Origin: an uncultured Chloroflexia bacterium
Lineage (GTDB): Bacteria; Chloroflexota; Dehalococcoidia; GIF9; UBA5629
NCBI GenBank assembly: GCA_963726215.1
Contig: CAVSBU010000017.1
Coordinates: 29,265 to 93,264 of the forward strand
Reading direction: 5' to 3'
DNA length: 64,000 nucleotides
The notes under the pieces were generated by a model. It saw only the letters and a program-made list of their open reading frames with translations, was not told where the DNA came from and searched no databases. Every line of letters begins with the position of its first letter. Within the stretch, counting starts at the first letter, position 1. Shown here piece after piece: positions 16,251 to 50,972 of the stretch. The position numbers and the translations under genes were made by a program.

Positions 16251-17696
16251 ATGAAGACAGAGTTCATGGTTGCCCTTACCCAATTATCGGCTGAGAAACA
16301 TCTGCCGAAGGAAGTAGTGCTGTCTGCCATAGAGACAGCACTCGTCTCCGCCTACAGAAAAGACGCTTTTGTCGCCGGCCAAGACATCTCAGCTAAAATC
16401 AACCCCACCACTGGCGAGGTCAAGGTCTATGTCAGGAAGACAGTAGTTGAAAAAGCAACCGATTTACTTCGTGAGATATCCCTTGGCGAAGCTCAAAAGA
16501 AAGACAAAAATGCCCAGATCGGGGACATTGTAAGCATAGAATCCACACCCCCGAATGCCGGACGCATCGCTGCTCAGACGGCAAGGCAGGTTATATTGCA
16601 GCGGTTGCATGAGGCAGAACATCATGCAATTTTCGAGGAATTTACCGGCAAGGAGGGTGACATCGTTACTGGAATAGTGCAACGCATTACTCCAGAGCAA
16701 ATTCATATTGATTTAGGCAAAGCTGAAGCAATACTACCTGGCATCGAACAAGTGCATAACGAGCGCTATCGAGTTGGACAAAGGCTCAAATTGTACGTCT
16801 TAGAGGTAACTAAGAGTAGCCGAGGGCCTCAGATATTGGTATCTCGCTCTCATCGCAACTTGTTGCGCAGGCTTTTCGAGTTAGAAATCCCGGAAATGTA
16901 TGGTGGCACTATAGATATAAAATCAATAGCACGCGAGGCAAGCTACCGAAGCAAGGTGGCTGTGGCAGCCCGCCAGGACGGTGTTGACCCTGTCGGTTGT
17001 TGTGTCGGACTGCGTGGAATTAGGATACAAAATATAGTGAATGAACTACGTGGCGAAAAGATAGATGTGGTTGAGTGGTCGGATGACCCAGCAACCTTCA
17101 TTGCTAATGCCCTCAGCCCGGCTCAGGTATCAAGCGTTGAACTAAATCAAGCAGAAAATACTGCTATGGTGACCGTTCCGGATAAACAGTTATCTTTGGC
17201 CATCGGCAAAGAAGGACAAAATGCCAGATTAGCGGCAAAACTAACTGGGTGGCGAATCGACATTAAAAGCACCTCAGCGGTTGAAGCGGAAAAGGCAAGT
17301 ATGGACAGAGAAGCTGCGGTGGCGGGCAGAAAGGCACTCGCTGAGCCAGAAGAGCTTATCCCCGAATTTGCTGCTGCAGGAGAAGTTTCCAGTCCATCAG
17401 CAGTGGGTGAAGAGGAAATACCAGGTGAACTGGAGCCAGTGACTGAGGAGAAAACCGAAGAGGTAGCCGCAGCTGTAAGTGATTTTGACCTTGTTTTCGC
17501 TACGGGTGTACCCTCAACAGCAAAATCTGCAGAGGGCCGACAAATCAGGTTCGCTGAGGACATCCTGCCGGGAAGAGCCAGTAAAGCCAAGAAGGAAAAA
17601 AGCGGCAAGAAAGAGTCCGATGTACCGGCAAGTAAAAGCCGGCCTAAGAAGGCTCGTCAAAAACGGTTAGCCTACGAAGAAGAACTTGAAGAATAA
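16251..17696 (+). CDS. nusA: transcription termination/antitermination factor NusA
   Basis: 481 aa. It has an N-terminal domain, S1 ([11 protein letters not shown]), KH1/KH2 ([20 protein letters not shown]; [25 protein letters not shown]), and an acidic then lysine-rich tail. Confidence 0.95.
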
Positions 17697-17997
17697 TACT
17701 AAGAAACAAAATCATCGTCAAAAGCACGTACCTGAACGTAGTTGCATTGCTTGCCGGGGGAAAAGGGCTAAAAGGGAGTTAATACGACTCGTTGGTAATG
17801 CCGACGCAGTACAAATAGACCCTAAGGGTAAAGACGCAGGTCGAGGGGCTTATTTATGCCCGATACGTGAATGCTGGGAGACAGGACTTAAAGGCAACCG
17901 CCTTGAGCATACCTTGCGGGTTAAGCTAACTTTGGAAAATCGCCAGGTGCTGGTAGAATATGGCAAGAGCCTACCAGAAAGAGAGAGCCGGGGTTGA
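17686..17997 (+). CDS. ylxR: YlxR/RnpM-family RNA-binding protein (DUF448)
   Basis: PERSCIACRGKRAKRELIRLV...GRGAYLC matches the DUF448 signature. It sits in the conserved position between nusA and infB. Confidence 0.85.
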   Translation: MKNNTKKQNHRQKHVPERSCIACRGKRAKRELIRLVGNADAVQIDPKGKDAGRGAYLCPIRECWETGLKGNRLEHTLRVKLTLENRQVLVEYGKSLPERESRG

Positions 17998-19802
17998 GGA
18001 ATAAGAAACAAGAATCAATTGCTGACCAAGAGGAGAATAACCCAGAAGCTAGCAGTTCCTTAAAGGCGCTGCATCATATTAGCCTTCCACCAACTCTCAC
18101 CGTAAAACAATTGGCTGACCTGTTGAAGGTTAGTGCCGTCGAGGTTATCAAACAGCTGATGAGAAACGGTGTCATGGCTAATATCAATCAGGCCGTAGAT
18201 TATGATACTGCGGCAGTAGTAGTTGCTCATTTCGGTTACGAAGCTAAAAAGCAGCCGATGTTCGCCCAAATAAAACGGCCTGTGTCAACAGCTGGCGGTA
18301 AACTTTACCCACGGCCGCCGGTGATTACTATCATGGGGCATGTTGACCACGGCAAGACAAGCCTCCTGGATGCCATTCGCCAAAGTAATGTAATCGCCAC
18401 CGAAGCTGGTGCTATTACTCAACATATAGGAGCTTACCAGGTCGAGCTGGATTCACGAAAGATTACTTTTCTGGATACACCGGGGCATGAGGCTTTTACT
18501 GCCATGAGAGCCAGAGGAACTCAAGTTACCGATATAGCTGTCCTGGTGGTAGCTGCTGATGACGGAGTGATGCCTCAGACTGTAGAAGCCATAGACCATG
18601 CTCGAGCGGCCAATGTACCTGTAGTGGTCGCCCTCAACAAAATTGACAAAGCTGACGCCAATCCAGAGAAAGTGAAAAAACAACTGTCCGATTTGGGCTT
18701 GGTTATTGAGGAATGGGGAGGAGACACAGTATGCGTGCCTATATCAGCTAAGAAAAAACAGGGTATAGATGAGCTTCTAGAAAACCTGCTCCTTGTCGCC
18801 GATATACTGGAACTCAAAGCTGAACACGATTGCCCGGCAGAAGGAGTAGTAATTGAAGCTCGGCTAGATAAAACCAGGGGGCCATTAGCTACCCTTCTGG
18901 TCCAAAAAGGTGTACTCAAGCTCGGTGACAACATCACAGTCAGTAATACCTGGGGCAGGGTCAAGGCCATGTTCAACCAATTGGGTAAGCATCTTAAGAA
19001 AGCTGAGCCTGCTACCCCGGTAGAAGTTCTCGGATTAAATGCTGTCCCTCAAGCCGGAGAATCTTTCAAGGTTGTTACCAACGAGCGTGAAGCCAGAATG
19101 CTCTTAGAAAAGCAGAAAGCCTCGCAACAAAAAGTCTCAAGTCGCGCCAGGCCCCTGGGCCTTAGTGACCTTTCAACTCAAATCAGCACCGGACAGATAA
19201 AGGAGCTCAACATCATCCTTAAGACAGATGTACAAGGAAGCATCGAGCCCATCAAGGATTCTCTAGAGCATCTTGGGGACGAGAGGATTAAGGTCAGAAT
19301 TATCCACTCGGGCAGTGGCGGTGTTACAGAAGGCGATGTGCTACTAGCCTTAGCTTCTAAAGGGATAATCATCGGCTTTAACAGCCGACCTGAACCAGGA
19401 GCACAACGACTGGCCGAAACAGAGGGAATAAGCATTCGGTATTACAATGTGATTTATGAGCTGGTGAAGGATGTTGAAAAAGCACTGAAAGGCATGCTGG
19501 AGCCTACTTATACTGAGGTCATTGAAGGTCAAGCCGAAGTGATAGCTGTATTTGACGCAGGTAAAAAAGGCAAAGTAGCTGGAGTTTCAGTTAAAGAAGG
19601 GAAGATGAGACGAGATGCCTCAGCTCGGTTAATACGTCGAGGCGAACCAATACACGAATCCCGCATAAATAGCTTAAGGCGTTTCAAGGAAGATGTTAAG
19701 GACGTAGCTACTGGCTTTGAGTGTGGGCTCAGGTTAGAAGGCTTTTCAGATTTCCAAATTGGCGATATAATTCAATCCTACCGACAGGAAATAGTAAGCT
19801 AA
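17994..19802 (+). CDS. infB: translation initiation factor IF-2
   Basis: 602 aa. G-domain motifs GHVDHGKTSLLD, DTPGHEAF and NKID, plus the C-terminal beta-barrel domains. Confidence 0.95.
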   Translation: MRNKKQESIADQEENNPEASSSLKALHHISLPPTLTVKQLADLLKVSAVEVIKQLMRNGVMANINQAVDYDTAAVVVAHFGYEAKKQPMFAQIKRPVSTAGGKLYPRPPVITIMGHVDHGKTSLLDAIRQSNVIATEAGAITQHIGAYQVELDSRKITFLDTPGHEAFTAMRARGTQVTDIAVLVVAADDGVMPQTVEAIDHARAANVPVVVALNKIDKADANPEKVKKQLSDLGLVIEEWGGDTVCVPISAKKKQGIDELLENLLLVADILELKAEHDCPAEGVVIEARLDKTRGPLATLLVQKGVLKLGDNITVSNTWGRVKAMFNQLGKHLKKAEPATPVEVLGLNAVPQAGESFKVVTNEREARMLLEKQKASQQKVSSRARPLGLSDLSTQISTGQIKELNIILKTDVQGSIEPIKDSLEHLGDERIKVRIIHSGSGGVTEGDVLLALASKGIIIGFNSRPEPGAQRLAETEGISIRYYNVIYELVKDVEKALKGMLEPTYTEVIEGQAEVIAVFDAGKKGKVAGVSVKEGKMRRDASARLIRRGEPIHESRINSLRRFKEDVKDVATGFECGLRLEGFSDFQIGDIIQSYRQEIVS

Positions 19803-44155: not shown

Positions 44156-45366
44156 CTAATATTCCAGAAGTCTTTTTTCACCCTTAATCTTCTTTATGTC
44201 CGTGATATCCTGAGTGACCTCCAAACAACCCAGATAATCGTCCGCCTTTGCGAACAGCAAAGTAGCGAATATAAATCAATTTGCCCTTCAGATTAATCCA
44301 GAACTGGGCTACGTCCTTGCTTGCCGCTTTTGAAGTCCTCCAATATCTGATTGACAACATGCACGCTTTTTTGAGGATGGCACTGCTGGACCTTAGTCCG
44401 ATAATAGCTTTAGCTCTGGGGAAAATCCTATCCTTAGACTGGCTGAAATAGCGTACCGTGTCATCTTTGTCCACAAAAGTCACATCCACCGGTAAGTATT
44501 TAATATTGCTTCAATCTCCTCTCCGGACAAGGCTGCCAGTTTCAAAAGAAACCATGCCTTTCACCTCCGATTTAATAGACCGGCCTTCCGATCTCTCCAA
44601 AGGCAACCTTCGCCGGCTCAGGAGTAAAACAGCAATAGCCCAGTTCATCAAACTGATGCCTGATATCAAGCCACTCGCTTTCCCCGATAACCTCCAGGGC
44701 AGCCGGAAACAGAATATTGTTTTCCTTATAAAAATGGCTTGACAACATTTCAGCCAGAGCCAGTGCCACTGCATCCAGTTGTGCCGGCAAAATCCTCAAA
44801 AGCCATTAATCTTATAGCTATCAACTATCCGGTAAACACTCTTCTTTATATCTCTTATTTTGTCATGTTCCATCCACATAACTGCCGGCGGTTCCTTAAT
44901 GCCGTGCTTCTCCAGCGACGGGAAAAGAACGTTCTCCTCTCGCACATAGTGACTGTCTGAATCCCTGAGATGCTTAACGATATGGTTCAACTGGTCCATC
45001 TTGTCGCCGGCCGAAGCCAAACCCTTGGCTCCCTTCATCCCCTTGGCCACATTCTTAAGCTCATCGGCAAACTGTAAGAGCATTTTGTGCTCTTCCATAA
45101 GAATGCGGATGGGATGCCCGGCAGGTGCTAGAGGCCCTTCTTTTTCAAACGATTCTTTAAGTATAGCCAGATGAATATCGCAGAATTTCTGTATCTCCTC
45201 CCTGGGCATTCCCTCTTTTACCAGCTCATCCTCTACCTTTGCCATCTCAGTCGGTGGAATGTCTCCTAGTGTTCTTCTGGCATTCCTTTTTTATCTGCTC
45301 CGGGTCGGCACCTTCATGCAGCCGCTTGAGCAAACCCTTTAAGACTTGCTTTCTGTCTTCCGCCAT
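44156..45366 (-). CDS. DUF438 / hemerythrin-HHE / PAS-domain protein (several frameshifts)
   Basis: MAEDRKQVLKGLLKRLHEGADPEQIKKE (DUF438-like). HPIRILMEEHKMLL, HYVREENVLFP and FYKENNILFPAALE (hemerythrin HHE motifs). The C-terminus is VTFVDKDDTVRYFS...YLGCLEVTQDITDIKKIKGEKRLLEY (PAS-like). Confidence 0.7.
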
Positions 45367-45379
45367 AGTTACAGTCCTC

Positions 45380-46066
45380 TTAATCTAGCTTCTCAAACTG
45401 GTCTTTGCTGGCGCCACACACCGGACATACCCAATCGTCAGGTAGCTTTTCAAAAGGCGTACCAGGTTTTATATTACCATCAGGGTCTCCGAGCTCAGGA
45501 TTATAAATATACCCACAAACTGAACACTTGTATTTTGCCATTTTAGTTGCTGCCTCCTTTTTCTCTTCGATATAAGTCGGTGCTGTCTTCGGTGTGGTGC
45601 CCCTCTTGACCTGATGATAATAGGCATAGGTCATCAGCTCGCCCTCTTTGATTACATCCGCTGCCACAATTTCTCCGACAAAGATGGTGTGGGTGCTAAC
45701 GTCCATTTGATTAATCACCTTCGCCTCAAGATAAGCCAGGGTATTGTCAAGTACTATGGGAACACCGGTCTCACCCATCTTATAATTTACGCCTTTGAAT
45801 TTATCCACATCCCGACCCGACTTGAAACCAAAGCTGCCAATGAAACTTAAAGGCGTGTCCTGAGACAGAATCGACACCGTAAACACTTTGCTTGCCGAAA
45901 CAAACTCATTGGTTAGATTTTGCTTATTCAGAGCCGCAGCGATAATAGGTGGTTCGGAGCAAACCTGAAAGACTGTATTGGCAATCTGGCCGTTGAACTT
46001 GCCATCTTTTTTGGAACAGACAACATACAAACCATAACTGAGCTTGTAAAGCGCTTGCAGATTCAT
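45380..46066 (-). CDS. flavin reductase-like domain fused to rubredoxin (high-molecular-weight rubredoxin type)
   Basis: 228 aa. N-terminus [25 protein letters not shown] (FMN-binding split barrel). The C-terminus [18 protein letters not shown]...[12 protein letters not shown] has the rubredoxin CxxC...CPxCG motifs. Confidence 0.8.
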
Positions 46067-46150: not shown

Positions 46151-46687
46151 TTAGCCGCCATCCAGTGAATGGTGTTCTGCTTTGCGGAAATAGCCCGCCG
46201 GGTCAATCAGGTATTCTCGATAGTCAACCAGAGTCAGATAGTGGCCTTCCTCTTCGGCAGCCAGGGCCGAATACAGTTTCTTCTCGGCGTCATAGGCCGC
46301 TTTCTGGTCCTGGTTGTTGTAGAATTCCCGAGTTTTGTTCTCCATTTCCATAGCCTTGGCTATGCTATCAAGTTCAGTGCTGGTTGCTTTCACAGTGGGC
46401 GCGGCCACCTTCATCTCTTTGGAAAATATGGTGTCAAGTATGGCACCCTTACGATGTTGAATGCTGACCTCAGGCCAGGCCTTTTGCTTTCTTATAGCGT
46501 TATATATGCCTCCAAATATCCGCCGGTGCTTATCTTCCTCAGCCGCCAGCCACTCAAAAAGCTCTCTGCCAACCTTGTTATCACTCTGTCGACTGGCTTT
46601 CTGGTAGTATTCTTTGCCATCGATTTCCATCTGAATAGCGAATTTAATCGCTTCTAAAGTCTTGCTTTGTTCTTCCTTCATTATCAC
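46151..46687 (-). CDS. rubrerythrin-like ferritin-fold diiron protein (no rubredoxin domain)
   Basis: 178 aa. MEIDGKEYY, AAEEDKHRRIF, MEMENKTREFY, and AAEEEGHYLTL (E / ExxH twice). Confidence 0.75.
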   Translation of the reverse strand: MIMKEEQSKTLEAIKFAIQMEIDGKEYYQKASRQSDNKVGRELFEWLAAEEDKHRRIFGGIYNAIRKQKAWPEVSIQHRKGAILDTIFSKEMKVAAPTVKATSTELDSIAKAMEMENKTREFYNNQDQKAAYDAEKKLYSALAAEEEGHYLTLVDYREYLIDPAGYFRKAEHHSLDGG

Positions 46688-46713: not shown

Positions 46714-46944
46714 CTATTTTGTCTTTTTTACATACGCCCGAAAGACCCCGCCTTCCTCTTCTATGCCCAGGCATTCGTTGCCTGTAGTCTTGCACCAGTT
46801 GGGGATATCCTCCTTTATACCCTTATCATCAGCTAGAACTTCCAACACCTGCCCCGGTTTTAACTGCTTCATTTTTTGAGCGGTTTTAGCAATGGGCATG
46901 GGACAATAAAGTCCGAGGCAATCCAGAGTCTCGTCTGCTTTCAT
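46714..46944 (-). CDS. tusA: TusA-family sulfurtransferase
   Basis: The likely start is ATG at 46944 (MKADETLDCLGLYCPMPIAKT) after AGGAGAGAAAGG. The CPxP motif is present. The longer listed N-terminus overlaps the upstream small ORF. Confidence 0.75.
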   Translation of the reverse strand: MKADETLDCLGLYCPMPIAKTAQKMKQLKPGQVLEVLADDKGIKEDIPNWCKTTGNECLGIEEEGGVFRAYVKKTK

Positions 46945-46973
46945 CCTTTCTCTCCTAAATAGTAATCTTTGTC

Positions 46974-47165
46974 TTACTTTTTTCGCCCCTTCTTCAGCGG
47001 TGCGCCACATTCAGGGCATTTAGTAGCTTTGTCATCCAGCACCATCATCTGGCAGCTGACACAATAGCTGATGACTGATCCACAAGCCTGACAGAAGGGA
47101 CAGCTAGCGATAACCAGCTCCTCTTCGCAGTAAGGACAAAGACAGCTATTCTCTTCTTGGCTTTC
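46974..47165 (-). CDS. possible Cys-rich zinc-ribbon mini-protein (no canonical start in frame)
   Basis: The open frame reads ESQEENSCLCPYCEEELVIASCPFCQACGSVISYCVSCQMMVLDDKATKCPECGAPLKKGRKK, with five CxxC pairs. No ATG, GTG or TTG lies in frame, so the start is probably lost to an indel. Confidence 0.3.
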   Translation of the reverse strand, partial: ESQEENSCLCPYCEEELVIASCPFCQACGSVISYCVSCQMMVLDDKATKCPECGAPLKKGRKK

Positions 47166-47174
47166 TTAGCTTTA

Positions 47175-47615
47175 TTAACTGACTTCACATTCTTCTCCTT
47201 CTTCATCACCTTCTCCTTTCTCTTCTAGACCTTCGATTTTGATTCCCTTCTTTTTGGCATAATCACGAATTGCTTGTTGTAGGGCTTGAGCCCCCAAATT
47301 AGAGCAATGATATTTGTTCTTGGGCAAGCCTTCCAATTCTTTGGCTACCAGGCTGGGTGTGATTTTAACCGCCTCCTCCAGCGTTTTACCTTTTGCCATC
47401 TCGCTGGTAATGCTGGAAACGGCCACCGCAGCCCCACAGCCGAAGGTCTGAAATTTGACGTCTTCAAGACGGTTATCCTTTACCTTGATATAAAACGTCA
47501 TCATATCCCCGCACACCGGGTTGCCTACTTCACCAATGCCGTCAGCATCTTTAATCTCCCCGACATTGCGGGGGTTCATAAAATGGTCCATCACTTTTTC
47601 ACTATATGCCGGCAT
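47175..47615 (-). CDS. iscU: Fe-S cluster assembly scaffold IscU/NifU N-terminal-domain protein
   Basis: 146 aa. NPRNVGE, GNPVCGDMM, FQTFGCGAAVA, and KYHCSNLG (three ligand Cys), with an acidic tail. Confidence 0.9.
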   Translation of the reverse strand: MPAYSEKVMDHFMNPRNVGEIKDADGIGEVGNPVCGDMMTFYIKVKDNRLEDVKFQTFGCGAAVAVSSITSEMAKGKTLEEAVKITPSLVAKELEGLPKNKYHCSNLGAQALQQAIRDYAKKKGIKIEGLEEKGEGDEEGEECEVS

Positions 47616-47621
47616 ATCACT

Positions 47622-48825
47622 TCACCCCCTCTTTTCTTTCATGAATTTAGCATATAAGGGAGACATCTGCCTCAATCTATCCACAATAGGAGGCAACTTC
47701 TCCAATACGTAATCTATATCCGCCTCGTCATTGTCCACCCCCAGGCTAAAAAGCAAGGAGCCCTGGGCAATTTCGTGCGGAATACCCATGGCAATAAGCA
47801 CGTGGGAGGCTTTCAAAGCTTTGGAGGTGCAGGCTGAGCCGCTGGAGACAGCGATGCCCTGGCTGTTGAGCAGCAGCAGCATGCCTTCACCTTCAATAAA
47901 CTCAACGCAAAAGCTGGCATGTTGGGGAAGACGCTGAGTCGGATGACCGGTAAGAAATGTATGGTCAATTGCCGCCGGTAGGCCATTGATTAGCCTGTCT
48001 CTCAGCCGGACAAACTTTTCCATGCGCGACGGCATGTCTCTCACGGCCAGTTCAGCAGCTTTGCCCATACCCACAATAGCCGGTACATTTTCCGTGCCCG
48101 GCCTCCGCCCACCTTCCTGCACTCCGCCGTCCATTAACGGTATAAGACGAACCCTCTTGCGTACCCACAAGGCTCCTGAACCCTTAGGCCCATAAAATTC
48201 ATTTCCGGCCAGGCTCAAGGCATCTGCTCCCAGCTTATTCACATCAACGGGTATACTACCTGTGCTGGCAACAGCATCTGTGTGAAATAACACGCCAGCC
48301 TCTTTAACCTTCTTAGCTATCTCGGCGATAGGCTCGATAGTGCCCACTTCTCCGTTGGCATGCATCACCGACACCAGTATGGTGTCTTTCTTAATATTTC
48401 TGGCTACTTCATCGGGGTCGACAAGCCCGTATTTATCCACCGGCACCTCGGTAATCTCAAAGCCAGCCTTCTCCAAAGTTCTGGCAGCATGGAGCACCGA
48501 AAAATGCTCGACTGCCGAGATAATTATGTGCTTCCCCTTTGCCATCTGGCCCTTGAGCCAGCCCTTTAAGCGCCAGATTATTAGCTTCGCTGCCGCTGGA
48601 GGTGAAAATTATTTCTTCAGCATCGCCACCGATGAGGGCGGCGACCTGCTCTCGAGCTTTTTCTATGGCTTCCCTGGCTTCATCGCCCCAGGAATGGATT
48701 GACTGGGGGTTTCCGTATACCTCCCGAAAATAAGGCAACATCGCCTCCAGCACCTCAGGCAATACCGGCGTGGTAGCCATATTATCCAGATAAACTCTTC
48801 TTCCCGGCTTCTTCTCATTCCCCAT
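47622..48825 (-). CDS. nifS: cysteine desulfurase (NifS/IscS class), frameshift near 48545
   Basis: [43 protein letters not shown], and SSGSACTS (active-site Cys). The chosen start is ATG at 48825 ([14 protein letters not shown]) after GGGAGA. Confidence 0.85.
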
Positions 48826-49709
48826 TAACGTATCTCCCGTTACTTGCCAGATTGTCTTCTTTACCGCCTGATATCTGGCCAGTCCCTCATTAAACAACCT
48901 TTCCTCTTCTTCAGTAATCACAATAAGCGGTGGAACGCGCCACAGGTTTACCCTTGTTGTCCGTGGCCACCATTATATAGTGGGCCGTCATAGCCTGTCG
49001 CCGTTCCCCGGTGCTAAGGTCCTCGGCATCGATTTGTACCCATACCTCCATAGATGTGTGACCTACGAAAGTCAGCTTGGCATGAATTAGCACCAGGTCA
49101 CCGACGTGAACGGGGTTAAGGAAGCGGATATTGTGCACCGTGCCGGTTACCGGATTAGCCTGACTGTGCCGGGCAGCTACCACACCGGCAGCATTGTCCA
49201 TCATTTTCATCAGTTCGCCGCCATGAACCACACCGGCTGGATTACTGTGATGCGGTAACATAAGCTCCGCCATCTCAACCGCCGAATGCCCCACGGTCTT
49301 ACCCTTCAATTCCTTCTTCTCATCCAGCGCCTCTATTAGCTGCTTGAAATTTTCTTCATGTCTCTGTTCCACCTTGCCCATCCGGCGAAAGAAATCAGCG
49401 ATGTCATTAAAGCCTTCTTCCTCAGCTATTTGTGCCGCCTCAGGATACAACCTGCTGGCTTCTTCATGCTCACGGCCGATAGCCAGCTTTAGATTCGCCG
49501 CCGTATTACCTAAGCCGCCAAGAAATTTAAACTCATGCTCGGCGTGTTCGGCTTCATTCTGGGCTGTGGTCAAAAACATATCAGCTATCTGGTCTAAGTC
49601 CAGCTTCTCTGGCAGCCTTGGAGAAGTATGAATAGACAGCATGAACATGTACCTCTCTGGCAAATGCCTTGCGTAAGCTGTCCTCGGTCCTGCTTCCTTT
49701 CAGTCTCAT
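48826..49709 (-). CDS. rubrerythrin-like diiron domain fused to hotdog-fold acyl-CoA thioesterase (two frameshifts; 3' end uncertain)
   Basis: ATG at 49709 after [26 protein letters not shown].., [12 protein letters not shown] and VEQRHEENF (ExxH twice). In the same frame follow [36 protein letters not shown]...[10 protein letters not shown] (thioesterase). The tail [14 protein letters not shown] lies in the next frame. Confidence 0.65.
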
Positions 49710-49802
49710 AATTCTCTCCTCTATTGACTGATATGCCACTACTTAAAATCAAGCAAGCTTCAACGTACCTGTACCGCTATTACGGCTGCCCACAAACCCT
49801 GT

Positions 49803-50039
49803 CTAAATGTTCAGTTTCTCCTTCAGCCATTTCTCGTTGTAGCCGACAGAAACCTCGCCATCGATGTCGATGACCGGCACCACAAATTTACCTGTCTTGT
49901 TTACCATCTCATCGCGGGCAACCTTGTCTCTGGCAACATCAAGATATTTATAAAGGATTTTGTTTTCGTCCAGCAACTGCCTGACCTTAATGCACCAGGG
50001 TCAGGTAGCGGTAGAATAGACTTTAACCTCTTTCGCCAT
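49803..50039 (-). CDS. glutaredoxin/NrdH-like thioredoxin-fold protein with in-frame TGA (candidate selenocysteine, U13)
   Basis: GGAGGCGAA RBS. MAKEVKVYSTAT-TGA-PWCIKVRQLLDENKILYKYLDVARDKVARDEMVNKTGKFVVPVIDIDGEVSVGYNEKWLKEKLNI (78 codons, no frame change). The TGA (50001-50003) sits exactly at the first Cys of the CPWC redox motif. A 7-bp hairpin CCUGACC/GGUCAGG spans the UGA. Confidence 0.7.
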
Positions 50040-50351
50040 TTCGCCTCCTCTAATCTTACTTCTATGACAGGTGCTTATGGCCACCCGTCTTCGTTAAACT
50101 AAAAAAGCCGCCGGCACAACTGACCGACAGCTTCGTTTAAATGCTTATTTCCGAAAGCGACATAGAGCATTTTTAGTCGAAAACATCGCCCGCCCACAAC
50201 GATACTCAGCCAACCCGACGGCTGGTTCCACAATAAATATAGGCAGGCTAAACCTCATTGTCAAGCAAATATAATCTATGTCTATGTGACCTTTCCCGAT
50301 TAATTTAGGATATTATGCCCCGTCTATCGTAAAATAGTCGTAAAATCAATA

Positions 50352-50384
50352 GCCCAAAAGTTAAAAACTTATAACATTTTGGGC
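50352..50384 (-). terminator. hairpin downstream of the fur operon (putative terminator)
   Basis: GCCCAAAAGTTA-AAAACTTA-TAACATTTTGGGC has arms of 12-13 nt with one bulge. On the transcribed (minus) strand it is followed by TATTGATTTT. Confidence 0.4.
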
Positions 50385-50406
50385 GGTTATATAAATTACC
50401 TTTGAC

Positions 50407-50577
50407 TTAAACCTGTTTTCTCAGCTTCTCCACGCCGCATTGCGTATTTTGAGTCGCTTTAACCTTGGCCCTTATCTCCGCCAGAAGCTCCCATGCCGCT
50501 TTCTCGTCATGGTCAATAATAGCCTGTTCCAGTCTGGTTACCTGCTGCTCATCCAATGTTATTACTGCTTTGGGCAT
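50407..50577 (-). CDS. small hypothetical protein translationally coupled to fur
   Basis: Below the track cut-off. Its ATG overlaps the fur stop (TGATG). MPKAVITLDEQQVTRLEQAIIDHDEKAAWELLAEIRAKVKATQNTQCGVEKLRKQV (56 aa, predicted helical). Confidence 0.5.
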   Translation of the reverse strand: MPKAVITLDEQQVTRLEQAIIDHDEKAAWELLAEIRAKVKATQNTQCGVEKLRKQV

Positions 50578-50972
50578 CAACTTCCTCCTACAGCCTCAAC
50601 TAACTGACACTCCAGGCACAGCCCGTAAAATTCCAGTCGATGATATATTATTCTGAAGCCAGTTCTCCGGGCAGCTATTTTGTCCATCTCTGAATTCACC
50701 GGCTCATCGACATCGAAGACCTGACCACACTTTTCACATCTGAAATGATAATGATTATCGCTTCTGGCATCGAACCGGCTTAAACTACCGCATAAGACCA
50801 GCTCCAATATCTCGCCACTCTCGCATAATAGCCTGAGGTTCCGATACACCGTCCCTAAACTGATATTAGGTATCTCTTTCCTTACCTCGTTATAAACCCA
50901 ATCAGCCGTCGGATGAGAGGTCGTGCCTCTCAAAACCTCAAGTATGGCTTCCTTCTGTCTGGTTTTCCTCAT
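50577..50972 (-). CDS. Fur-family transcriptional regulator (PerR/Fur-like)
   Basis: 131 aa. RKTRQKEAILEVL...HPTADWVYNEV...ISLGTVYRNL (wHTH), HYHFRCEKCG...GLCLEC (structural Zn CxxC pairs). It sits in an oxidative-stress context. Confidence 0.85.
   Translation of the reverse strand: MRKTRQKEAILEVLRGTTSHPTADWVYNEVRKEIPNISLGTVYRNLRLLCESGEILELVLCGSLSRFDARSDNHYHFRCEKCGQVFDVDEPVNSEMDKIAARRTGFRIIYHRLEFYGLCLECQLVEAVGGS

Follow-up and report, generated by a model that had tools for sequence, protein, structure and literature searches.

A conserved in-frame UGA, very likely a selenocysteine codon, in a glutaredoxin-like gene of an uncultured Dehalococcoidia bacterium

The window analysed here is a 64,000 nt stretch of contig CAVSBU010000017.1 (positions 29,265 to 93,264) from an uncultured Chloroflexia bacterium that GTDB places in the Dehalococcoidia. 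On its minus strand, at 49803..50039, it carries a gene that encodes a small glutaredoxin-like redoxin (Cp9/YruB/cGrx1 type) and whose reading frame passes through a TGA codon. Judged from its sequence, its translation and its match to the Pfam family PF00462, the read-through frame has 78 codons, running from an ATG (50039..50037) to a TAG (49805..49803); the conceptual translation reads MAKEVKVYSTAT, then the only internal in-frame TGA, then PWCIKVRQLLDENKILYKYLDVARDKVARDEMVNKTGKFVVPVIDIDGEVSVGYNEKWLKEKLNI up to the stop. The TGA is codon 13 (50001..50003, minus strand), which on comparative grounds appears to specify selenocysteine (Sec); it occupies the first position of a U-P-W-C redox motif (codons 13-16, 50003..49992), and the residue before it is T. 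A Shine-Dalgarno sequence, GAGGAGG, lies 4 nt 5′ of the ATG (50044..50050, minus strand), and an AGGAGG-type motif before the ATG is also kept in related loci. An earlier note on this DNA had described a well-initiated 78-codon open reading frame (ORF) with a ribosome binding site that the ORF track had missed, and both points are borne out: the site and the ATG at 50039 are present, and the mechanical ORF list contains only the C-terminal 57-aa piece (49976..49803), starting at a TTG. Overall, the locus very likely encodes a 78-residue glutaredoxin (Grx)-like selenoprotein with Sec at residue 13, its insertion being directed by a hairpin at 49985..49968.

The UGA position is conserved as a position for cysteine or UGA. 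A protein search returned 202 homologues, 120 of which are listed (75 full-length and 45 short). Aligning the window protein with its Cys-containing homologues, as the earlier note had proposed, places the stop on the first Cys of a CxxC motif in 71 of the 75 full-length proteins listed (CPWC in 68), and the remaining four carry WPWC. The 45 short entries are fragments of 57-63 aa that begin just past the motif and are annotated as glutaredoxin or NrdH-redoxin; they are the sequences most similar to the window protein among the matches listed (74-98% identity). In particular, 13 contigs, from different samples, are on record with the identical 57-aa product, and all 10 that were retrieved, as independent contigs from ENA and Logan assemblies, have the TGA together with the same in-frame N-terminal peptide. 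One of these contigs is labelled Dehalococcoidia, family UBA5620; a literature search found no paper naming UBA5620.

Across all loci fetched, which were drawn from species-representative genomes and metagenomes, 55 loci (49 distinct sequences) have TGA at codon 13 and 101 have TGT or TGC; only these three codons occur in any lineage, with no Trp or Gly codon. The TGA loci reach down to about 55% identity to the window protein and include 11 species-representative genomes (59-77% identity) with both flanks conserved in frame. Moreover, the 12 codons before the TGA keep their amino acids while drifting freely at synonymous sites (four codons each at V5, S9 and T10), which indicates that they and the part after the TGA are translated as one frame. 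A scan for Sec/Cys pairs, which covered about 1.7 Mb of window and related DNA and 6,984 open-flanked TGA sites, returned the codon 13 site as its sole clean pair, with Cys aligned there in 90-113 loci, TGA in 56 and any other residue in none; its other returns were antisense-frame artefacts and true stops. The alignment of the TGA with the Cys of CxxC is far beyond chance.

The Sec/Cys pair and the conservation upstream of it together leave almost no room for a sequencing error, for a pseudogene or for codon reassignment. Under the first two, the true codon would be TGC or TGT, misread in sequencing or assembly, or a recent nonsense mutation would have left the gene dead. Errors do exist in this assembly: the neighbouring NifS and rubrerythrin-4HBT genes are frameshifted relative to close relatives, where they are intact, and their splitting is consistent with assembly indels, the type of error that the earlier note had described, rather than with real pseudogenes. 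The same TGA, however, stands in 10 of 10 retrieved contigs with the identical product and in 55 loci overall with flanks in frame, and amino acid conservation with synonymous drift on both sides is unlike a pseudogene, so that this explanation is extremely improbable. If UGA were instead reassigned to Trp or Gly (genetic code 4 or 25), the four listed homologues recorded with W at codon 13 would fit; yet those entries lie on short contigs and are products of code 4 gene-calling models, no homologue lineage has a Trp or Gly codon at the site, and no in-frame TGA was seen at conserved Trp or Gly positions in the window. TGA is also the commonest ordinary stop there: of 82 long ORFs, 35 end with it, those of Fur, NfeD and NifS among them, which implies a standard genetic code and leaves reassignment with next to no probability.

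A second conserved signal lies in the RNA just downstream of the UGA. The sequence GUCAGGC-AGUU-GCUGGAC (49968..49985, minus strand) can form a hairpin resembling a selenocysteine insertion sequence (SECIS), which has a counterpart in every Sec form, is specific to Sec forms and coincides with synonymous constraint. It spans nt 19-36 counted from the U of the UGA, with an internal A.G mismatch (49982 x 49971), an apical loop AGUU (49978..49975) and a distance from UGA to loop of 22 nt. The mean minimum free energy (MFE) of the segment from +12 to +45 is -7.2 kcal/mol in 40 distinct Sec forms versus -2.0 kcal/mol in 100 Cys forms (Mann-Whitney p=4e-19, a value that overstates independence because the sequences are phylogenetically related). 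Pairing in the fixed register holds in 83% of cells versus 20-46% when the partners are slid, and the observed pairing and covariation were reached by only 0-1 of 500 shuffles. Five divergent Sec forms (L133, L134, L135, L137 and L142) keep a hairpin at this position but build it from other stem sequences, the stems in such forms including GAGGAC...UUCCUC, CCAAGA-GUC-UCUUGG and GGUCAAG-AGGUU-CUUGACC.

The coding sequence is constrained accordingly at this place. Synonymous variation collapses at codons 19-22 (GTC in 39/42, AAG in 31/31, CAG in 44/44 and TTG in 39/41), whereas outside these codons the gene uses both codons for Lys and for Gln, and Leu is encoded mainly by CTN at its other positions. 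As a codon control for constraint at the peptide level, Q-L-L is encoded with CAG-TTG in 30 of 31 Sec forms versus one of five Cys forms, the single Cys form being L173, the closest Cys relative. The published model of the bacterial SECIS (bSECIS) has a loop of 3-9 nt, an upper stem of 4-16 bp, a distance from UGA to loop of 16-37 nt and an MFE of at most -7.5 kcal/mol (PMC13188914, Fig. 2A), as well as a G within the first two loop positions that is usually followed by G or U (PMC13188914). The window hairpin has the spacing (22 nt), the loop length (4 nt, AGUU) and the G-U beginning at loop position 2; all four limits hold for 11 of the 40 Sec forms, which have perfect 7-8 bp stems, and for none of the 100 Cys forms. 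The conserved SECIS-like element therefore appears, by comparison across loci, to be this hairpin, located just downstream of the helix that had been proposed earlier.

That earlier helix, CCUGACC and GGUCAGG around a 12 nt loop with the UGA inside it (49980..50005, minus strand), was likened in the note to a SECIS. It does form in the window sequence, with an MFE of -14.2 kcal/mol over 50010..49940, and to that extent the proposal stands; as a SECIS it was rejected. The folding of 50010..49940 is at chance level (z = -0.78 against dinucleotide shuffles, 44 of 200 of which fold at least as well), TGA forms fold no better than Cys forms in the region (p=0.07), and covariation in the 5 bp core is zero, the core consisting of the invariant UGA, the Pro codon and the Lys-Val codons. 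Nor is the helix conserved at full length: it requires an AAG to AGG change confined to the window's sublineage, and it is broken in L001, L003-L005, L011 and L016. The segment GGUCAGG, which is its 3′ arm, also belongs to the downstream hairpin, making the two helices mutually exclusive.

Sec forms are confined to the Dehalococcoidia/Chloroflexota part of the family, where a neighbour-joining tree of 76 residues interleaves them with Cys forms. The main Sec clade has 27 distinct sequences, the window's included, and the same tree has no Sec forms among Omnitrophota, Planctomycetes or archaeal homologues. Because a tree from 76 residues is weak, its Fitch minimum of 12 Sec/Cys switches is readable only as several, and the sequences indicate only that several switches happened in the family. 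The closest Cys-form relative, L173 (JGI Ga0499970_0094936, gene 769-1005), is 77% identical and shares the Fur, small ORF and Grx context; it retains the Sec-type codons GTC AAG CAG TTG CTG and a residual hairpin of -4.0 kcal/mol, a combination that suggests a recent switch from Sec to Cys or from Cys to Sec.

For profile searches the stop was replaced by Cys. The protein then matches the Pfam Glutaredoxin model PF00462 over residues 5-63 with 60.5 bits (cutoff 22.9, E=1.8e-16). The best NCBIfam model is TIGR02196 (YruB family), with 72.8 bits under a trusted cutoff of 88.55, so the protein would be Cp9/YruB-like rather than a certified TIGR02196 member. Two UXX-star models scored below their cutoffs (NF041212, 50.7 bits versus 66; NF041114, 38.5 versus 72), as did the NrdH-redoxin model TIGR02194 (30.8 bits versus 85.75); the motif is UPWC, and no ribonucleotide reductase (RNR) genes were found nearby. 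The closest solved structure by sequence is PDB entry 7c10 (E=1.3e-13), which is cGrx1; the two proteins are 43% identical over 76 residues, share the MAKEV start and align Cys13 with the UGA. The entries 4tr0 and 4tr1 were set aside as the characterised Sec-Grx comparison, being cGrx2. The earlier note's reading of a Grx-like selenoprotein with UGA in place of the nucleophilic Cys of CPWC is thus strongly supported by a Sec/Cys pair in more than 150 loci, an N-terminus conserved in frame and the native selenoprotein cGrx1 as the closest solved relative.

As a proxy for the structure of the window protein, an AlphaFold model of the closest Cys homologue was used (P0003, 77% identical and in the same gene context; mean predicted local distance difference test score 86.6). 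The model has strands at residues 5-9, 31-34, 56-59 and 62-65 and helices at 14-25, 39-49 and 69-75, giving a glutaredoxin-type β-α-β-α-β-β-α topology in which residue 13 stands directly before helix α1; V54-P55, the cis-Pro before β3, is invariant in the homologue alignment. Foldseek searches with the model gave template modelling (TM) scores of 0.86-0.90 to Grx and NrdH-like structures, including 0.90 to 7c10 (root-mean-square deviation 1.0 Å) and 0.89 to BC3987, the top match.

The fold bears on whether translation might simply end at the UGA, with the functional product being the 57-aa C-terminal fragment made from the internal TTG (49976). Gene callers do annotate the locus in this way, as the 45 short entries among the matches listed attest. 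According to the model, however, such a fragment would lack strand β1, the whole redox motif and half of helix α1. The internal start is not conserved, with TTG, GTG, CTG or other codons at position 22 and called starts that vary, while a strong ribosome binding site and a conserved ATG stand upstream of the UGA and the 12 N-terminal codons are under purifying selection. Termination at the UGA is very unlikely on this evidence, and the 78-residue selenoprotein stays the better description of the gene.

The gene lies within a conserved cluster. Sec-form loci carry, in this order, NfeD, a Fur-family regulator, a 57-aa ORF, Grx(Sec), a thioredoxin reductase (TrxR)-like flavoprotein, a rubrerythrin-4HBT fusion, NifS, NifU, TusA and rubrerythrin, and in some of these loci a flavin reductase-rubredoxin fusion closes the cluster. 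In the window, all on the minus strand, the Fur-family (PerR-like) regulator occupies 50577..50972 (PF01475, E=6.7e-29) and is upstream of Grx in 36 Sec-form loci. The 57-aa ORF MMPKAVITLDEQQVTRLEQAIIDHDEKAAWELLAEIRAKVKATQNTQCGVEKLRKQV (50407..50580) overlaps the Fur stop by 4 nt and has no Pfam match; it separates the Fur and Grx genes in 36 Sec-form loci and also in a few Cys-form ones. Downstream follow the frameshifted rubrerythrin-4HBT (thioesterase) fusion (48856..49709, split by frameshifts over 48856-49739), the frameshifted NifS cysteine desulfurase (47625..48825, split over 47622-48921; 400 aa in L081), NifU (47175..47615), TusA (46714..47010), rubrerythrin (46151..46687) and the flavin reductase-rubredoxin fusion (45380..46066). 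This gene order would place the Grx gene in a Fur/PerR-linked cluster for oxidative stress and Fe-S repair. The fusion of a rubrerythrin/ferritin-like domain to a 4HBT thioesterase is itself unusual; it stands beside the Grx gene in 34 Sec-form loci and is intact, at 288 aa, in L081 (6229-7095), L082 and L086.

The TrxR-like gene follows Grx directly in 30 Sec-form loci, to be set against the 33 whose downstream flank reaches at least 2 kb; among 102 Cys-form loci it does so in 86. It encodes a 291-aa Pyr_redox_2 protein about 250 nt past the Grx TGA in L002-L009, L098, L101-L104, L111, L112 and L124. In the window's sublineage Grx is followed directly by rubrerythrin-4HBT, and the comparison of gene orders indicates that the TrxR-like gene was lost there from the position after Grx. 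L091, another locus of this sublineage, has a 97% identical copy of the Grx gene on the 464 kb contig Ga0187886_1000003.

Two further elements precede the gene on the minus strand. A strong promoter-like site, TTGACA-17-TATATT (50236..50264, 11 of 12 matches) is conserved in most Sec-form loci. Within the leader, about 55 nt before the ribosome binding site, a terminator-like 12 bp stem is followed by a U-run (50104..50134); compensatory changes in the stem occur in L096, L112, L007 and L008, and other loci have a shorter leader. The stem may serve as an attenuator or other leader element, or belong to a small RNA; Rfam gave no matches in the whole window at gathering thresholds, nor in 49750..50650 at E<=1.

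The gene and its context, the conservation of its UGA, the Sec/Cys pairing, the RNA hairpin and the fold have direct support. Several results nevertheless weigh against selenocysteine insertion at this UGA, or against the hairpin and the electron donor proposed for it. ARAGORN found no tRNA-Sec in the 64 kb window or in the related loci, and selA, selB and selD were not found in the window, which was searched by tblastn with E. coli SelA, SelB and SelD, or in about 1.7 Mb of related flanks. Neither a scan for TGA followed by a hairpin nor the Sec/Cys-pair scan (6,984 sites, about 1.7 Mb) gave a second selenoprotein gene. The window hairpin narrowly misses two of the four bSECIS limits, at -6.4 kcal/mol versus at most -7.5 and with a stem of 3 bp, an A.G mismatch and 3 bp, just short of an upper stem of at least 4 bp; the competing helix across the UGA is also, in the window, thermodynamically the stronger of the two. 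Strict covariation in the main clade is modest (two pairs with double changes), and RNAalifold returned no consensus structure for the 40 Sec-form segments. We put the RNAalifold result down to the A.G mismatch within the stem and to divergent forms pairing in a different register, and the evidence for structure comes instead from pair counts on the named structure and from folding each sequence. Finally, the TrxR-like gene is absent from the locus in the window and in L081, L091-L096, L099 and L001, and from the 64 kb window as a whole.

Some candidates from these searches were discarded. The sole SelB-like match in the window is translation initiation factor IF2 (infB, after nusA) according to Pfam, not selB; the nusA-infB pair lies at 16251-19802 on the plus strand, and the GTPase domain of infB is the part that resembles SelB. 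The TGA-plus-hairpin scan gave only false leads, among them 30063, which lies upstream of the true start of an aspartate-semialdehyde dehydrogenase gene. A TGA at 44798..44796 interrupts a coding-looking ORF beginning MAKVEDELVKEGMPREEIQKFCDIHLAILKE (44511-45245, minus strand), whose frame stays open beyond it; this TGA had no Cys/TGA partners in the Sec/Cys scan, and the ORF was taken as a frameshifted or terminated gene rather than as a Sec site.

With the machinery missing from the DNA at hand and the hairpin weaker than the bSECIS energy threshold, the UGA might instead be read through independently of SelB by a near-cognate Trp, Cys or Arg tRNA, giving a product without Sec and leaving the hairpin a merely stimulatory role. 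Against this, the 22 nt spacing, the small loop and the G at loop position 2 followed by U/G fit a SelB-dependent bSECIS (PMC13188914), and the UGA occupies a catalytic nucleophile position that would function only with Cys or Sec and at which TGT, TGC and TGA alone are seen. Moreover, the closest characterised homologue, cGrx1, is a true selenoprotein (PMC7642778), and Sec decoding is documented within the class: selC, selB, Sec-synthesis genes and selenoproteins are all present in Dehalogenimonas alkenigignens (PMC4918011), and BSepDB counts among its richest entries Dehalococcoidia metagenome-assembled genomes that have 46-49 selenoprotein genes (PMC13326102). We therefore consider near-cognate read-through improbable, and we infer, from the comparative signal of the family together with the Dehalococcoidia literature, that the source organism decodes Sec.

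The sequence features suggest how the selenoprotein would be made and how it would act. Translation would begin at the ATG at 50039 behind its strong ribosome binding site. With the UGA positioned in the A site, the mRNA channel of the ribosome would enclose the 5′ arm of the UGA-spanning helix, so that the downstream hairpin (49985..49968) would be free to form. The freed hairpin would recruit SelB-GTP-Sec-tRNA(Sec), and Sec would be inserted in place of termination. The product would act as a dithiol-type (selenol/thiol) oxidoreductase, in which Sec13 attacks a substrate disulfide or sulfenate and Cys16 resolves the resulting selenenylsulfide. The oxidised U-C pair would then be re-reduced, probably by a TrxR-like flavoprotein, as the gene context of the relatives and the Cp34/Cp9 pair of Clostridium pasteurianum suggest. 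By analogy, the adjacency of a TrxR-like gene in the relatives points to recycling of the TrxR type rather than glutathione (GSH)-dependent recycling; combined with the Cp34/Cp9 precedent, it would make the protein a redoxin that relays electrons from the TrxR-like flavoprotein to enzymes of peroxide defence or repair.

In the window's sublineage, the K20R change (AAG to AGG) both converts an A-U pair of the SECIS-like stem to G-U and completes the 7 bp CCUGACC/GGUCAGG helix, which buries the UGA; it is also the sublineage without the adjacent TrxR-like gene. A more speculative reading, which we regard as unlikely, is that the two exclusive helices form a translation-coupled switch that tunes Sec insertion, or that the Sec-redoxin has been rewired to new partners, such as rubrerythrin-4HBT, the persulfide chemistry of NifS/NifU/TusA or the flavin reductase-rubredoxin.

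The selenoprotein assignment corrects the annotation of a gene in a poorly studied, uncultured Dehalococcoidia lineage. In public databases the family appears only as 57-63 aa fragments named "glutaredoxin" or "NrdH-redoxin", or with a spurious Trp. The family also offers a well-populated clade that switches between Sec and Cys (49 distinct Sec sequences with close Cys relatives), which is usable for studying how a SECIS is gained or decays within a coding sequence. The assignment further suggests that the NAD(P)H relay of the Cp34/Cp9 type, which serves strict anaerobes in peroxide defence, has a selenium-dependent version in Chloroflexota.

Among known small redoxins, NrdH-redoxin and BC3987 (PDB 1r7h, 4fiw, 3zij/3zit) resemble the window protein in their small thioredoxin fold of about 75-78 aa and in the [IV]-x-[ILV]-[YF]-[ST] strand before the motif. 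They differ in the motif itself, which is C-[VMI]-Q-C in NrdH and C-P-P-C in BC3987 versus U-P-W-C here, and NrdH is encoded in nrdHIEF operons whereas the window gene has no RNR context. NrdH-redoxin and BC3987 are reduced by TrxR rather than by GSH.

Catalogues of selenoproteins have included Sec-glutaredoxins with a UxxC motif ever since the Sargasso Sea survey (PMC1088965), and these proteins count among the verified prokaryotic selenoproteins (PMC9312934, PMC13188914). The window protein shares with them the PF00462 domain, Sec as the first residue of UxxC, widespread Cys homologues and a bSECIS-type hairpin 3′ of the UGA. A YruB-like Sec family, the distant Grx-like protein 1, has also been catalogued (PMC9312934, PMC13188914), but with UxxT where the window protein has UxxC. 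Compared with the consensus bSECIS, the window hairpin likewise lies within the coding region just 3′ of the UGA and has the G[G|U] loop pattern, differing in its lower stability (-6.4 kcal/mol) and in the A.G mismatch that interrupts its stem.

In Clostridium pasteurianum the gene order is cp34 (TrxR-like), cp9 (Grx-like, YruB) and cp20 (peroxiredoxin) (PMC3720550), and Cp34 and Cp9 form an NADH-dependent system that reduces peroxiredoxin (Reynolds, Meyer and Poole 2002, as cited in PMC3720550). Members of the Cp9/YruB group are of similar size (75-80 aa, versus 78 for the window protein) and carry a C-P-[YW]-C-type motif corresponding to U-P-W-C. Their setting is also similar, in that most relatives of the window gene have a TrxR-like flavoprotein gene directly 3′ and a peroxide-stress neighbourhood with rubrerythrin or rubredoxin. 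Cp9 differs in having Cys where the window protein probably has Sec; in addition, the TrxR-like gene is missing from the locus in the window and its sublineage, and rubrerythrins adjoin the gene instead of a peroxiredoxin.

The nearest characterised counterpart is cGrx1 of Clostridium oremlandii, a native selenoprotein with catalytic Sec in a U(C)PXC motif that is the proposed reductant of the selenoprotein MsrA and is described as GSH-recycled (PMC7642778). Its structures, PDB 7c10 and 7c12, are from Clostridium (Alkaliphilus) oremlandii OhILAs, for which PMC13188914 cites Kim et al. 2011. The two proteins share size, fold and Sec/Cys at position 13 in U(C)-P-x-C; they differ in motif, U/CPHC in cGrx1 versus UPWC in the window protein, and in phylum, Firmicutes versus Chloroflexota. 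Their surroundings differ as well: cGrx1 is described as recycled by GSH and as reducing MsrA, whereas the window gene stands in a Fur, rubrerythrin and NifS/NifU/TusA context, and the genes examined next to it include none identified as MsrA. Overall, neither a new mechanism nor a new kind of protein is implied; the product is of a known kind, a Sec-glutaredoxin of the cGrx1/Cp9/YruB type.

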